The notes under the pieces are model-generated. The model made no database searches. It was given only the letters and a program-made list of their open reading frames with translations, and was not told the origin of the DNA. The position numbers and the translations under genes were made by a program. Of a DNA stretch of 64,000 nucleotides, positions 59,461 to 63,600 are shown piece after piece. Position 1 is the first letter of the stretch. The number at the start of each line of letters is the position of its first letter. Source of the stretch: a bacterium (GTDB lineage: Bacteria; Sysuimicrobiota; Sysuimicrobiia; Sysuimicrobiales; Segetimicrobiaceae); the NCBI GenBank assembly GCA_035945995.1, contig DASYZR010000153.1, positions 22,330 through 86,329 on the forward strand, written 5' to 3'.

Positions 59461-59527
59461 CTCAACGACCCGGATGACCAGTCGACCATAGAGCGGCCCA
59501 CCGGCGCTGGCGTCCGCGCTTTGCCAC

Positions 59528-60547
59528 CTAAACCTTCAGGAGCAACATGACCTTGGCCTCACTCCGGTAGTCTGGAGGTGCGGTAAAGACCGTCCCCGGA
59601 AAGTCGGGAGGGTACACTGGAGGGGCAAGTAACCTGACGGCCAGAGTATCGAAATCGCGGTGGGTGACCTCGATCTGCGTAGGAGCAGGTTGCGACAGAC
59701 AGTCGGATGTGAGGCTGAAACTCCCGGTGACGTTGCCGGTCAAAGGCCCACCAGCAGTAGCCGACACGATGGCTATCGCTGCGTCGGGGTAGTTTATCGT
59801 CTTTCTCGGCTCCACTTTGAGCCAAATATCATCCCAGTCGCCTCGGTCCTTCAATTCCTTCACGGATCTCTTTTCACCGCAGCACTTCTCGAACCACGGT
59901 GAGTGGCAATACTGGTCGGGATCGAACTCATCGTTCGGGCTGTTGAAGAACGCCGTCCAGAAGTCGGTCTCTAGGTCATCGAGGCTGGTGGTATCCGTGT
60001 ATTTTACGCCATACAGTTTCAACATCTCGGCGAACGGTACCCGATAGGGCTGTGTGTCCGGCGGCTCGATGTCGACCACGAGGCTCGATGCCGGTGGCTG
60101 TTGCGGTATTCGTATCCGCCTTTCGCCTGTATGATAGAGGTACAGGTTCACCCATTCCGGTGTCTCGTCGGCTGCCGTCTCTCCTCTCGCGCACACGGCC
60201 TGGAAGTATTCCAGCTGATAGACATCGACCAAGGGAAAAGCCCCGAGGCCGTGCTTGATCACCTTTTCCTGGCAGACTCGAAGCCGTTTGAAGAGCATCT
60301 GGTAGCCGGTTCGCCCCGGTATGGCGGCGAGGACCTGCTTGATGATATCCTGCGTCAGTTGGTCTGGCGTCTTGCCCCCCAGGGTGTCGGCGTCCCCGGC
60401 GTGCTGCACGTTGTTGACCTGCCCCACCGCGGTCTGAATCGAGGCCGCGATGTCCTGCTTGACGTCTACTTGAACCTCGTTCCAGTCTCCGGCAGTGATC
60501 AGGTCGCCTGGATTGCGCGGAACGTAGGGGGTGATGTCGCTGTCCAT
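59528..60547 (-). CDS. Hypothetical protein (339 aa) in a markedly lower-GC segment, between the two giant genes
   Basis: GGAGAGG RBS 5 nt upstream of the ATG at 60547. Local GC is about 55-58% against about 70% background. N-terminal ITAGDWNEV motif and a Cys cluster CHSPWFEKCCGEK. No confident family assignment. Confidence 0.5.
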   Translation of the reverse strand: MDSDITPYVPRNPGDLITAGDWNEVQVDVKQDIAASIQTAVGQVNNVQHAGDADTLGGKTPDQLTQDIIKQVLAAIPGRTGYQMLFKRLRVCQEKVIKHGLGAFPLVDVYQLEYFQAVCARGETAADETPEWVNLYLYHTGERRIRIPQQPPASSLVVDIEPPDTQPYRVPFAEMLKLYGVKYTDTTSLDDLETDFWTAFFNSPNDEFDPDQYCHSPWFEKCCGEKRSVKELKDRGDWDDIWLKVEPRKTINYPDAAIAIVSATAGGPLTGNVTGSFSLTSDCLSQPAPTQIEVTHRDFDTLAVRLLAPPVYPPDFPGTVFTAPPDYRSEAKVMLLLKV

Positions 60548-60621
60548 GTTGTCCTCTCCTTTGTGAAGTCGTTTTCGCCTCTCGAGGTGAGGCGATCGCC
60601 CACCACCGTAGAGCCGATCAC

Positions 60622-63600
60622 TCAATCATTGGCCTGCGACGTAGACTCCCAGGCCGCTCCGAATATCGTGCCATCACTGCGGCCCACGGTATCGTGGGCA
60701 ATGGTGCTCTGACCTTCATCGAGCAGGTACTCCGCGACCAGCCCTGCTCGCGGGACAACACCCGATGAGTACAGGGCCGCGATCTCGGCTCGACTGAGCG
60801 ATCGATTCCAGACCCTGATCTCGGCGAGACCGCCCAGAAAATAGCCGTGCCCATCCCGATGGCCCATGCGAAGGGGTGCGTCACCGCGCTTGGGCGTGAT
60901 CACTAAGGGAGGGTGCGACTCGCAGCTCCCGTCTCCCGTGCCCCGGTACTGGTCACATTTCCGGAAGACGCCGTTCTTGTAGATGTACGTCCGTTCGCCG
61001 TCTGCAACGCCGACCACGTGAATCCACCGGCCTAGTGTGATCGGATCCTGGAAGTAGCTGCCGACTCCCTCATGGCCCTCCGGATTGAACACGTAGAAGC
61101 TGATCCTGTTTTGTCGATGCTCGGTATTATCCCGGCTGTACATCCGGAACGCCCATTCCTGCGTTCCCTGCGCGCCTGAGCCTTCACCCTTACCCAGCCA
61201 GTGAACGTATCCGGTGCCGTCCGTCCGAGGAAATTTCAGGGTGTCGGGTTTCATCCAGGCCGACACTGTCAGCGCACCGGTGGCGGTGATGCTGAACTTG
61301 TCGCTGTCCGGGACTTCGACGTAGCTCCTGATTCCATCAAACTGAAGGTACGTGCCAGGGAAACCAGGCGCTCCGCCGCCGCCAACAACGGTGCCGGGCG
61401 TCGGCTCGACGTCGGTACGGTCGCGAGTCACGTCGGCGCGCACACCAGCCGCTTTGGCGTGGAGGATGCCCACAGGCTGCGGCCGGAGGATCGCGTCGAT
61501 CAGTGCGGGAAGCGGATCGTCCTTCGGGGCAGTGATCTGGCCGGCGAACGCGATCTGGCGGGCGCTCTCAAACCTCGCCGCTTTGTAGCCCACGGTCACG
61601 TCGTAGCGGGCGGGGCCCGCCCGGCGCGCCGTTACTTCGATGCTGTTGCCCCAGACGCCCGGCTGTCGCGCACTCAGCTCGATCAGGCCCGGCACGCCCT
61701 GCTCGGCCAGATAAATCCGCGCCGGCGCGCCGCGGCTGCCGAGGGTGAGCGCCCTGGCGCGGGGATGGCGGAAAGGAACGACCATGGGTTCCCATCCCAA
61801 GGGCGGGCTGGGCTGGTTCAGGAATCTCGCCGTCACCAGCTTCGAGCCGTTGATGCGGTCGTTGATGCGGTTGACAAGATAATCGGGGTCGCCGCCAGGA
61901 TCGCCCAGAACGCTGGGCTCGAGTACGGCGCTTGGAAAAGTCTCGGGAGTATTCCCCGGCAGCCCGAACCGGGCCTCGTCGAAGCGCGCGCCGAACGCTT
62001 CCGGCAAGTCTGCCGGCAGGTTGACCACGAAGGCACCCGGCCGGTATCGGACCCACTGAAACAGGACCTCAACGGTCGGGTCGGTGAGCGGCGGCGCCGG
62101 GGCAAAAACGGCCGCCTCCACCTCCGGCGCCGCATCCGCGAAACGGCTCACATCGAAGATCCCGCGCTCATGACAGGTACCTCCGGCGAACCTCGTCTGG
62201 TCGAAGTGACCGCGGTCGTAGCGCGCGCTGTCGCAGTTGAGGTACAGCCACTCCGACCGCCCGCGCGGCAGGATCAGTGCGGCACCTTTGTCCACCTCCT
62301 CGCCGAAGACCAACTGCGAAGGCGCGCTGTTCACCTGCCACGTCAGGCTGTCCGGCGTTCCGGTGCCGGTCCCGATGGTGACGCCGGAATGGGCCTCGAC
62401 CACGGCGGTTCCGTCGGCGGCCGCGCCCGAGAAGGTCACATCGAACAAGCGCGCGATGCGCTCCGCGACCATGACCGGTGGTGTACCCTCGCCCGTAAAG
62501 AGCGGTCCCTCTGCCACCACGGGGCGGCCGGCGTAGAATCCAGGCGTGGCGCCGGCACTCGGGCGCAGCAAGCACAGCAGAGCGCCGGCGGCGTCTACCA
62601 GCCTGGCTCCGGATGCGTCAACGAGCACCTTTCCCGTCAGGCGAATCCTGCTTCCGTCTGGCGCAGGGACGCCGGTGCCGGCAGCCAAAGCCGCGTCGAC
62701 CACGTCGACCGCGGTCTGATCCCCGGCCGCACCGCGCTGCCTGGCCCGCAGAATGACAATGGCCGGAGCATCCGGATTGTTCAATTGCAGCGATGCCCAA
62801 TCGCTCGCGTCGCCGCCCACGAGGTGCCAACTTCCCCTGAGCGGCACGTGAGCTTGCGCGCCGAGCGGACCGGCCAGGATCCGGGAGCCGGGCACGACCG
62901 CCGCGCCGCCGTCCGCCGCCACCACCTCCGCACTCAGGTGCGAGTCGCCGCCACGCCGGAGGCGCAGGCGTTCACCCGGACGAATGAGCACCGTCACCCG
63001 AACGCGCACACCCGCGCTCAGGTTCACCAGCTCCGGACCGGCGTCGCCGTGCGGCGCGCTGATTTCGACGCGCAGATCGGCGTCCGCAGCGCCATCGTTC
63101 ATGACAGACCAATGATCGCCGTGCCGAACAATGCGCGGCGGCTCATCGATGCTCGCAGGCGGATATTCGATGAGCTCTAGCGCGCGCAGAGGCACAATCT
63201 GCAGGCTGCTGTTCCCGCCGCTGGTCGGGGACGTCAGCCGCAAGTGATCGCCGTCGGCCACCGAGGCCACGCCGGGCAGGGCGGCATTGATCCTGTCGAC
63301 GACTTCATCGGCGAACGTCCGGTCGGGCGCCGCACCGGCCACGTCCAATTCCACGGGACGGCTGCCGTCAACGGACAACGCGAGTGTGGACCGCTCGGCA
63401 AGGTTGACGCCTGCCCGGAGATCCGCCACGCCCGTAATAGCGGCCGGAGCCGGATCCACGCCCGTGGTCACGTCGGGTACCTGGCCGAACAGGACCTGAC
63501 GCGCATCGCTCGCGGTGTACGCGAGGAGATCCAGCCGGCCGGCCGAGCCGGGCGCGACCGACGTGAGAATGAGATGAGTTCCGTCGTCGCCGGCCACCGG

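Follow-up and report, generated by a model that had tools for sequence, protein, structure and literature searches.

The question raised by this locus is whether a conspicuous drop in GC content marks a module which has been exchanged horizontally, or whether the drop can be accounted for by the proteins encoded there. In the window, by which the whole stretch of 64,000 nucleotides analysed is meant, positions 59461-61400 have a GC content of 59.9% (0.599) as compared to a mean of 70.4% (0.704), corresponding to a z of about -3.4 (standard deviation of 1940-bp windows 0.031). The first-pass annotation had described an AT-richer interval made up of a 339 amino acid reading frame and the LamG-encoding 3' end of a large reading frame. 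Both observations proved to be right: the lowest of all 1,242 sliding windows of 1940 bp starts at position 59451, and the two genes are found as described (Table 1). The edges of the low-GC zone are gradual, with values of 0.62–0.64 at 58550-59450, and additional dips to 0.59–0.63 occur in the 1447 amino acid gene downstream of the 339 amino acid gene. As the window is part of a metagenome-assembled contig, a chimeric join importing sequence of lower GC content had to be considered, but such an artefact is extremely improbable: the exact 339 amino acid protein is recorded on 14 contigs, and 15 contigs carrying it were read, two contigs from different sequencing runs match at 99.6% over the whole region and are collinear upstream, and the same gene order is found in 30+ unrelated loci.

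Table 1. Features in and around the low-GC interval of the window, listed in the order of their positions.
Feature	Position	Strand	Remarks
1447 amino acid gene, last of the cluster	55117..59460	-	syntenic in all loci
Intergenic spacer, 339 amino acid gene / 1447 amino acid gene	59461..59527	-	GC 0.687
339 amino acid core gene, tail-fibre-like position	59528..60547	-	ATG preceded by AAAGGAGAGG
Intergenic spacer with Shine-Dalgarno AAAGGAGAGG, 5' of the 339 amino acid gene	60548..60621	-	GC 0.581
LamG / concanavalin-A-like lectin domain (fragment residues 883-1125 + stop)	60622..61353	-	PF13385
21 amino acid Gly/Pro-rich linker TDVEPTPGTVVGGGGAPGFPG, core to LamG	61354..61416	-	sequence varies among LamG-clade lineages
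Conserved C-terminal core of the giant protein (fragment residues 271-861)	61417..63189	-	terminal motif AKAAGVRADVTRDR
Giant baseplate protein, last ~2.5 of about nine ~110 amino acid repeats	63190..64000	-	reading frame leaves the window

The interval very probably represents the distal end of the baseplate operon of a contractile injection system (CIS), which is a phage-tail-like assembly, with the amino acid make-up of the LamG and 339 amino acid modules as the main cause of the dip. The core genes of the baseplate sit just beyond the window edge and were read in strain L037/L038, which is 99.6% identical, as well as in homologous loci, where VgrG-like, PAAR-like, gp25/Sheath_initiator and Baseplate_J genes lie directly upstream of the giant gene. 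The complete order is thus VgrG-like, PAAR-like, gp25, Baseplate_J, a giant repeat protein of 1905 amino acids, the 339 amino acid gene, and a 1447 amino acid beta-propeller/helix-hairpin-helix (HhH) protein. The spike (Phage_base_V/VgrG-like), the gp25-type sheath initiator and Baseplate_J are also present in L001, L003, L009, L035, L036, and L040. A tube gene could not be identified by family match. A Cis15 AAA+ ATPase, a Cis16 cap and a Cis14 tape measure are what separates eCIS from prophage tails. The genes 3' of the cluster are different in every locus, and searches of promoter and terminator signals and of Rfam families gave nothing relevant.

The Cis nomenclature and the examples Afp, PVC, AlgoCIS, and the Anabaena tCIS are taken from Weiss et al. 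2022 (PMC8894136). The baseplate genes of the operon follow the same order as in these systems: the spike (Phage_base_V) and a PAAR-like protein come first, then gp25/sheath initiator and Baseplate_J (Cis11), and finally a large gene product at Cis12 and a small one at Cis13. A sheath gene (Phage_sheath_1 and Phage_sheath_1C) was seen farther upstream in one homologous locus only, L036. Lineage-specific extra domains that mediate attachment are likewise present on Cis12 and Cis13, the peripheral baseplate proteins of tCIS (PMC8894136). The giant, the 339 amino acid, and the 1447 amino acid proteins of the present family have no detectable sequence or fold similarity to any solved CIS component, and unlike known CIS the protein in the Cis12 position contains up to ~9 or more repeats of 110 amino acids and, in a subclade, a LamG tip. 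Cis12 for the giant protein and Cis13 for the 339 amino acid protein are candidate assignments, taken from gene order alone.

The large reading frame runs on the minus strand from 60622 to beyond 64000, where it is cut by the window edge; its full length was obtained from L037/L038. In every locus in which the upstream region was read it follows immediately after the Baseplate_J gene. The repeats share the anchor motif DGxxLxLTSxxxG and have diverged to such an extent that they are detectable at the protein level only, no tandem repeats being found in the DNA of the gene. The core is 42–72% identical across all loci in local tblastn searches (77% to L004 in a MAFFT alignment) and yielded no match in Pfam or among PDB sequences. 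Full short and long homologs had no match among PDB sequences either, and the window fragment gave only a weak pentraxin match inside its LamG part (E=0.018). For the N-terminus, Pfam at E<=10 gave no match, and a homolog search was likewise negative or of low confidence. An AF2 model of a short homolog (pLDDT 58.7) retrieved only weak phage-baseplate and galectin matches in Foldseek (E>1e-3). At a confident level, PDB, Pfam, and AF2 plus Foldseek thus gave no sequence or fold match to characterised Cis12-type proteins.

The last ~245 residues of the reading frame are a Laminin_G_3 domain (PF13385, E=1e-16, 61.9 bits at a cutoff of 27.6), which covers positions 2-151 of the 151 in the profile. 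It is present in the window and in four related lineages (L001, L003/L004, L039, and L040), where the reading frame continues past the core via a linker of about 20 amino acids, and is missing from 27 other loci, among them a sister lineage (L005-L028 and L033/34 are included in this group). In the LamG-less homologs AKAAGVRADVTRDR is the natural C-terminus; in 27/32 loci, as well as in another 32 proteins of the family, the giant protein ends 4–26 residues past the conserved ...AKAAGVRAxVTRDR. Since not a single alternative C-terminal domain was found in these 27 loci and 32 proteins, the pattern points to a single gain of LamG and not to swapping. The C-terminal domain is therefore variable, as had been proposed, in the sense that LamG is present in five lineages and the giant protein stops at the core in the others. 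Judged from this distribution, LamG is an accessory C-terminal fusion limited to a small subclade, in which identities to the L001 and L003 domains are 73–79%. Apart from this clade, its nearest relatives are free-standing secreted Laminin_G_3 proteins of soil bacteria outside CIS loci, which have 310–460 amino acids and are 55–62% identical over the whole mature domain, starting from the end of the signal peptide. Some of them carry CarboxypepD_reg (PF13620) or SLH (PF00395) domains. The CIS LamG differs from them in that it has no signal peptide and forms the C-terminal tip of a 1905 amino acid protein.

The 339 amino acid protein, with its conserved motif CHSPWFEKCCGE, is found as the neighbour of the giant gene in 32/32 loci, with or without LamG. 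At least 422 full-length homologs with 50–86% identity are known (207 clusters among 1.84 billion representatives; mean column identity of alignment A1 52%), and a metagenome scan with this single protein yielded 4 loci, 2 of which were new. The family occurs in Acidobacteriota, Chloroflexota, Cyanobacteria, Vulcanimicrobiota, and Proteobacteria at about 50% identity. Neither Pfam, NCBIfam nor PHROG contained a match, and a profile of 40 homologs gave 0 matches at E<=1 among PDB sequences. The AF2 model (pLDDT 80) predicts helices at 19-46 and 61-75 and a beta-rich domain at 82-339. Foldseek searches with it in PDB and BFVD gave no match at E<=0.001, the best one being a cyanophage fibre at E=1.2, and neither sequence nor fold matched known Cis13, Afp13, Pvc13 or phage fibres in the PDB and BFVD searches. 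The likeness to Cis13/Afp13 would consist in the location of the gene after the Cis12 position and in the predicted layout, which is helical at the N-terminus and has a distal domain after it. By comparative sequence analysis the protein belongs to the universal core of this CIS family, is strongly conserved, and forms an orphan family. The protein encoded by the last gene of the cluster begins with a conserved domain (1-520), which is followed by a YVTN-type beta-propeller (~521-880) and a variable middle region, with two helix-hairpin-helix/DUF4332 units at the C-terminus.

The first-pass annotation had interpreted this constellation as a swapped cassette, i.e., a variable C-terminal domain and its cognate downstream gene, exchanged horizontally, on the model of a receptor-binding domain and its chaperone or of a polymorphic C-terminal domain and its partner. 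On this view the two would move as a unit, and their lower GC content would stem from a different donor. The GC minimum does fall on LamG and the 339 amino acid gene, the presence of LamG does differ among close relatives, and in the lineage of the window the GC content at fourfold sites of both modules is below that of the rest of the giant gene. An alignment of the homologous loci, however, separated the two parts of the proposal: LamG varies, and the 339 amino acid gene is invariant in presence and collinear, so that it is kept regardless of LamG and is not its cognate partner. Trees of the giant core, the 339 amino acid protein, and the downstream protein are concordant, with the LamG-less L034 as outgroup. 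Identity is flat across the LamG junction, values to the closest relative being 84–91% for LamG, 86% for the 339 amino acid protein, and 79–94% elsewhere. Instead of swapped C-terminal modules only presence or absence of LamG was seen, and a search of the module's flanks revealed neither repeats nor recombination sites. The dip of the 339 amino acid gene, moreover, is family-wide and located at codon positions 1 and 2 and not at synonymous sites. Exchange of LamG and the 339 amino acid gene as a cassette is thus largely refuted and very unlikely.

The same layout invites comparison with two other known arrangements. Tail fibres with a C-terminal binding domain and a downstream chaperone are found in T4 (gp37/gp38), P2 (H/G), and Mu (S/U), and the present locus resembles them in that a protein of the distal tail or baseplate ends in a binding-type domain and its gene is followed by a small one. 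Unlike a chaperone gene of this kind, the 339 amino acid gene is invariant with or without LamG, is larger, and encodes one of the most conserved proteins of the cluster. Polymorphic toxins of the Rhs/CdiA type combine a C-terminal toxin domain with an immunity gene. Here, too, the protein is large and repeat-bearing, its C-terminal module is distinct, and the 3' region is of lower GC content. LamG, however, is no toxin but has a lectin-type fold, C-terminal types do not alternate, identity does not drop sharply at the junction, and the downstream gene is conserved family-wide.

What causes the dip becomes apparent when the codon positions are considered separately. GC contents at positions 1/2/3 are 0.732/0.516/0.900 in host genes versus 0.611/0.459/0.723 in LamG and the 339 amino acid gene taken together (LamG: GC 0.615, GC3 0.715; 339 amino acid gene: GC 0.584, GC2 0.419). 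When the dip is measured against the adjacent giant gene, 69% of it stems from positions 1 and 2; the share is 74% with the giant and 1447 amino acid genes as reference and 50% with host genes. This is because the two modules are short of Ala/Arg-type GC-rich codons; their alanine content is 7–8% as compared to 15% in the flanks, and they are enriched in Asp, Lys, Gln, Tyr, Phe, Trp, and Thr. If codons were used as in the neighbouring CIS genes, a GC content of 0.630 would be expected for LamG (observed 0.615) and of 0.601 for the 339 amino acid gene (observed 0.584), with GC3 z values of -1.8 and -1.6, respectively. The family-wide test in 32 loci, with flanks ranging from 0.45 to 0.78 GC, gave the same picture. 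The GC content of the 339 amino acid gene was below that of its flanks in 32/32 loci (mean -0.083), the difference at positions 1 and 2 was -0.120 (negative in 32/32), and at position 3 it was -0.008 (negative in 17/32, p=0.42). The size of the dip rises with the GC content of the flanks (r=-0.71; 32 loci).

A modest deficit at synonymous sites persists, and it is common to the LamG/339 amino acid region and the distal 1447 amino acid gene. Fourfold-site GC is 0.727 in LamG and 0.737 in the 339 amino acid gene versus 0.847 in the rest of the giant fragment; in strain L038 it is ~0.74 for each of the two, 0.85 for the giant gene, and 0.81 for the first part of the 1447 amino acid gene, with z=-3.2 for the 339 amino acid gene against its flanks. 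An initial statement that no such deficit exists, made from a z of about -1.7, had to be dropped, as a real deficit of ~0.10 is seen when the adjacent giant gene serves as reference; the initial value was small because the reference set contained the equally GC3-poor 1447 amino acid gene (GC3 0.760, falling to 0.705 distally). Across 30 loci the fourfold GC of the 339 amino acid gene deviates from the flanks with either sign (z from -5.8 to +3.6).

The fourfold-site deficit of LamG is not explained by amino acid composition. One reading is that only LamG is foreign, its source being a gene for a secreted LamG protein in a donor with lower GC3, with the synonymous deficit as a relic and the dip of the 339 amino acid gene purely compositional. 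The end-fusion layout, a homology that sets in precisely where the mature secreted proteins begin, and fourfold GC values of 0.71–0.74 in all five LamG lineages versus 0.80–0.85 in the rest of the giant gene in four of them, a difference of ~0.10, are in line with this. However, L001 lacks the deficit (0.713 versus 0.718), and with the LamG lineages diverged to 73–79% protein identity, re-equilibration of their synonymous sites would be expected by now. In the standalone LamG genes that were examined GC3 is 0.78–0.82, the same as in their own genomes, and the distal 1447 amino acid gene becomes equally GC3-poor without being an insertion. This reading is rather unlikely.

Another explanation for the third-position part of the dip is that this 70%-GC genome obtained the CIS cluster, or only the distal half of it, horizontally from a lineage of lower GC content, with incomplete amelioration. 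The giant gene, LamG, the 339 amino acid gene, and the 1447 amino acid gene have GC3 values of 0.72–0.81 versus 0.900 in 26 host genes (standard deviation 0.021, minimum 0.857), z values under host codon usage range from -9 to -20, the closest relatives reside in loci of 59–65% GC, and both the spread of the family over five phyla and the change of downstream neighbours from locus to locus are in favour of it. On the other hand, no tRNA, integrase or repeat was found at the boundary (54722-55116), weak codon selection or low expression could yield the same pattern, and the extended sequence showed that in the baseplate genes farther upstream in this operon GC3 is 0.85–0.89, which is near the host. 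The earlier view of the whole CIS block as compositionally foreign was inaccurate for this last reason and was abandoned. Acquisition is a candidate for this part of the dip, held at somewhat below an even chance.

Taken together, we favour the explanation that a small subclade inherited from its common ancestor a single fusion, in which a Gly/Pro linker of about 20 amino acids joins a LamG lectin-like domain to the point where the giant, repeat-bearing protein encoded directly after Baseplate_J naturally ends. The second low-GC module would be the core protein in the Cis13, tail-fibre-like position. Both modules are probably compact and globular, with a composition that lowers GC at codon positions 1 and 2, and the lower third-position GC of the distal operon as compared to host genes adds a further layer. 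LamG may sit at the tip of a long repeat arm at the periphery of the baseplate, providing an extra ligand- or glycan-binding site, and the 339 amino acid protein may be docked to the baseplate via its N-terminal helix.

The GC dip itself is thus ordinary: conserved globular domains can, almost entirely through their amino acid composition, give a high-GC genome a local minimum in GC, and such a minimum by itself is no evidence of horizontal exchange. What the locus does offer is a CIS lineage with peripheral baseplate proteins lacking recognisable relatives among characterised systems, and a clean natural case of a lectin-type domain grafted on the C-terminus of a baseplate arm, a kind of change similar to that used in deliberate re-targeting of CIS by engineering of the PVC tail fibre. 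As a tentative proposal, possible but short of probable when taken as a whole, the three distal genes may define the apparatus by which an uncharacterised CIS lineage widespread in soil phyla recognises its targets or is anchored. The parts of this apparatus would be the giant repeat arm with an optional LamG tip, the orphan-fold 339 amino acid protein replacing the classical tail fibre, and the beta-propeller/HhH protein of 1300–1450 amino acids, and the LamG subclade would then represent a recent retargeting via capture of a secreted lectin.

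The first-pass annotation had described an AT-richer interval at 59461-61400, and this was confirmed by sliding-window GC, which gave 59.9% against a window mean of 70.4% (SD 3.1 points, 1940-bp windows). The dip is real and the strongest in the window, because the lowest of all sliding windows starts at 59451. Its edges are not sharp: the adjoining 900 bases (58550-59450) still have 62-64% GC, and additional minima occur in the 1447-aa gene near 57500-57950 and 55850-56300.

Features around the GC dip, with GC at the three codon positions
Feature	Position or length	Strand	GC1	GC2	GC3	Description
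26 host genes			0.732	0.516	0.900	
LarC/UxaE gene cluster	36067-47702					
Gap between convergent ogt and 1447-aa gene end	54722-55116 (395 bp)					61.5% GC
1447-aa gene	55117-59460	minus	0.693	0.524	0.760	YVTN-type beta-propeller, two C-terminal helix-hairpin-helix (HhH)/DUF4332 units
Spacer, 339-aa/1447-aa genes	67 bp	minus				
339-aa gene	59528-60547	minus	0.605	0.419	0.729	NCBI product name: hypothetical
Spacer, giant ORF/339-aa gene	74 bp	minus				strong Shine-Dalgarno sequence
Giant-protein ORF	end at 60622, off window at 64000	minus				last ~245 residues Pfam Laminin_G_3, E=1e-16
LamG	60625-61353		0.619	0.512	0.715	
Linker	61354-61416					variable, ~20 aa, Gly/Pro
Giant fragment without LamG			0.726	0.540	0.812	
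Giant-protein repeats	63190-64000; L038 4209-9926					anchor DGxxLxLTSxxxG

The region belongs to a contractile injection system (CIS) of the phage-tail-like type and forms its baseplate-distal end. The window derives from a 109-kb MAG contig; the upstream genes were read from homolog-bearing contigs and from two contigs of a 99.6%-identical strain (L037, L038), which add 6.5 kb and give a full length of 1905 aa for the giant protein. In the operon, a VgrG-like spike gene (Phage_base_V) is followed by genes for a PAAR-like protein of 110 aa, gp25/sheath initiator and Baseplate_J and then by the giant, 339-aa and 1447-aa genes, with a Phage_sheath_1 gene farther upstream in locus L036. By gene position only, the giant protein is assigned to Cis12 and the 339-aa protein to Cis13 (tail-fibre-like) in the nomenclature of Weiss et al. 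2022 (PMC8894136); no solved CIS component matches either of them in sequence or fold. At every locus the gene of the 1447-aa family is terminal, and the genes beyond it differ from locus to locus. Its N-domain (1-520) is present in all loci, the beta-propeller part (521-880) is absent from cyanobacterial and some Chloroflexota loci (proteins of 1117-1200 aa), and the match to the HhH/DUF4332 C-terminus varies. A Cys-rich stretch (CFCPCCQNE...CANCGAEM) weakly matches DUF5679, and the HhH region gives a weak NCBIfam CIS12_fam match (E=4.8e-6) that falls far short of the cutoff. Left of 55117 are ordinary metabolic genes with GC3 near 0.90 (ogt, PEP mutase family, amidohydrolase, binding proteins, LarC, UxaE, hydantoinases and others); the gap before them, where the CIS cluster apparently ends on the left, contained no tRNA, terminator-like hairpin or repeats. 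Farther left, genes for LarC (nickel-pincer cofactor insertion), Lar_N-like, UxaE-family epimerase, enolase-superfamily and ABC sugar transporter proteins suggest a nickel-pincer-dependent sugar-acid racemase/epimerase pathway. In Myxacorys almedinensis (L009) the PAAR-like and gp25 genes are separated by an inserted family-2 glycosyltransferase gene (3846-4673), and an IPT/TIG-repeat protein gene precedes the spike region.

Codon positions 1 and 2 account for 69% of the dip when compared with the adjacent giant gene and for 50% when compared with host genes. LamG and the 339-aa protein contain 7-8% alanine against 15% in the flanks and are enriched in Asp, Lys, Gln, Tyr, Phe, Trp and Thr. With codons used as in neighbouring CIS genes, LamG would be expected to have a GC of 0.630 and the 339-aa gene one of 0.601; the observed values of 0.615 and 0.584 are close to these. 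A family control was made with 32 loci ranging in flank GC from 0.45 to 0.78. The 339-aa gene lay below its flanks in all of them (mean -0.083), as did its positions 1 and 2 (-0.120, 32/32), while position 3 differed by a mean of -0.008 (negative in 17/32, p=0.42). The dip in this gene deepens as flank GC rises (r=-0.71, 32 loci), and in the high-GC relatives L010, L012 and L017 its GC3 equals that of the neighbours but its total GC is 10-12 points lower. That the 339-aa gene is GC-poor reflects its protein family rather than the history of this genome; the compositional deviation described in the first-pass annotation is real, but for this gene it arises family-wide at positions 1 and 2, with no systematic shift at position 3.

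LamG is a clade-specific accessory, an acquired end-fusion module. In 27 of 32 loci the alignment to the giant protein of the window ends at fragment residue ~860-870, where the ORF stops, the LamG-less proteins terminating 4-12 residues past a conserved ...AKAAGVRAxVTRDR motif. A further 32 family proteins end 9-26 residues past it, none with an alternative C-terminal domain. The ORF reads on past the motif in the window, L001, L003/L004, L039 and L040, through the linker to TYLQFDG..., the start of LamG, which aligns with the first post-signal-peptide residues of free-standing secreted LamG proteins (310-460 aa, 55-62% identity to the domain) encoded in unrelated neighbourhoods with proteases, beta-helix proteins and similar genes. 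Loci L033/L034, with a giant core 70% identical to that of the window and as close as the LamG-bearing lineages, lack LamG and are the outgroup to these in every tree; a single gain in the subclade ancestor is the simplest history. GCA_030157145.1 carries two distinct LamG-bearing loci, L004 and L040, with 339-aa proteins 75% and 70% identical to that of the window, which may belong to two different strains or to a single genome that has two copies. Of all features of the giant protein, repeat number varies most, the family ranging from 634 aa (L036, no repeats) to 2128 aa (L011). About nine diverged ~110-aa repeats with a weak FliD-like match are present in the lineage of the window, and a DNA tandem-repeat search did not detect them.

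The 339-aa gene is not, as had been proposed, the partner of LamG but a core gene: it lies immediately 3' of the giant gene in 32/32 non-redundant loci, 27 of which have no LamG. More than 422 full-length homologs (50-86% identity) occur in Acidobacteriota, Chloroflexota, Cyanobacteria, Vulcanimicrobiota and Proteobacteria. The family is compact, with 207 clusters at 50% identity among 1.84 billion representatives, and a 40-sequence alignment gave a mean column identity of 52% with invariant Cys/His/Trp positions. An AF2 model (pLDDT 80) shows two helices, the N-terminal one long, and a beta-rich domain that is predicted well; Foldseek found no fold relative of the model in PDB or BFVD. Residues ~213-225 carry the motif CHSPWFEKCCGE, in which Ser, Trp and Cys-Cys are invariant and His is nearly so; with Cys119, also nearly invariant, it could provide the globular domain with a metal site or disulfides.

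Neighbour-joining trees of the giant core, the 339-aa protein, and the N-domain and middle part of the 1447-aa protein have the same topology, (L034,((L001,L004),window)). No identity step occurs at the LamG junction along the full giant protein; in the closest lineage, L039, identity is 84-91% in LamG, 79-94% elsewhere in the giant protein and 86% in the 339-aa protein. No flanking repeats were found around the two. These results therefore show no exchange of LamG and the 339-aa gene between relatives known so far, nor any co-variation of the gene with the domain. The idea of an exchanged cassette of foreign composition found no support; what holds of it is that LamG is acquired and is present or absent among homologous loci, while the downstream gene is kept in all. 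This compositional and evolutionary explanation of the dip as a whole is considered probable.

A synonymous-site deficit remains. Fourfold-site GC in the window lineage is 0.727 in LamG, 0.737 in the 339-aa gene and 0.847 in the rest of the giant fragment, and in the 1447-aa gene it falls from 0.81-0.83 in the first half to 0.73-0.78 distally. GC3 falls along the operon (L038 1-13195 plus window 55117-64000), since the upstream baseplate genes are near the host value of 0.90 (VgrG-like 0.89, PAAR-like 0.87, gp25 0.85, Baseplate_J 0.86) and the distal ones lower (giant 0.81, LamG 0.72, 339-aa 0.73, 1447-aa 0.76, with 0.70-0.74 in its distal half). The low-GC3 end is common to LamG, the 339-aa gene and the distal 1447-aa gene. 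Horizontal acquisition of the CIS cluster is possible: the GC3 of the distal genes, below that of host genes (z -9 to -20 when host codon usage is assumed), is compatible with it, and it would fit the patchy spread of the family across phyla, but the upstream genes are near host values and no boundary marks were found. The fourfold-GC deviation of the 339-aa gene varies in sign among loci (z -5.8 to +3.6). LamG has ~0.73 (0.71-0.74) in all five LamG lineages, with the rest of the giant gene at 0.72 to 0.85 overall and at 0.80-0.85 in four of them. This constancy, kept by lineages that have diverged, may be the relic of a foreign donor, but such a relic would be unexpected at 73-79% protein identity, and the standalone LamG genes examined are not GC3-poor.

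Gene order, domain architecture, the end-fusion and the conservation patterns are demonstrated here; structural roles may be proposed for both proteins, tentatively and at best with about equal weight for and against. The giant protein would anchor in the baseplate via its N-terminal ~100 residues, which are highly conserved (87-88% identity in the lineages whose sequence covers that part), extend a variable number of repeats and expose the conserved C-terminal core peripherally as a binding surface, which in the LamG subclade the added lectin-type domain would join. The 339-aa protein would dock through its N-terminal helix, presenting its orphan-fold globular domain; Cis13 attaches in this way in tCIS (PMC8894136), a likeness we infer for the 339-aa protein. 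The GC dip itself is ordinary, and it is the underlying CIS lineage with its LamG-tipped variant that is modestly interesting.
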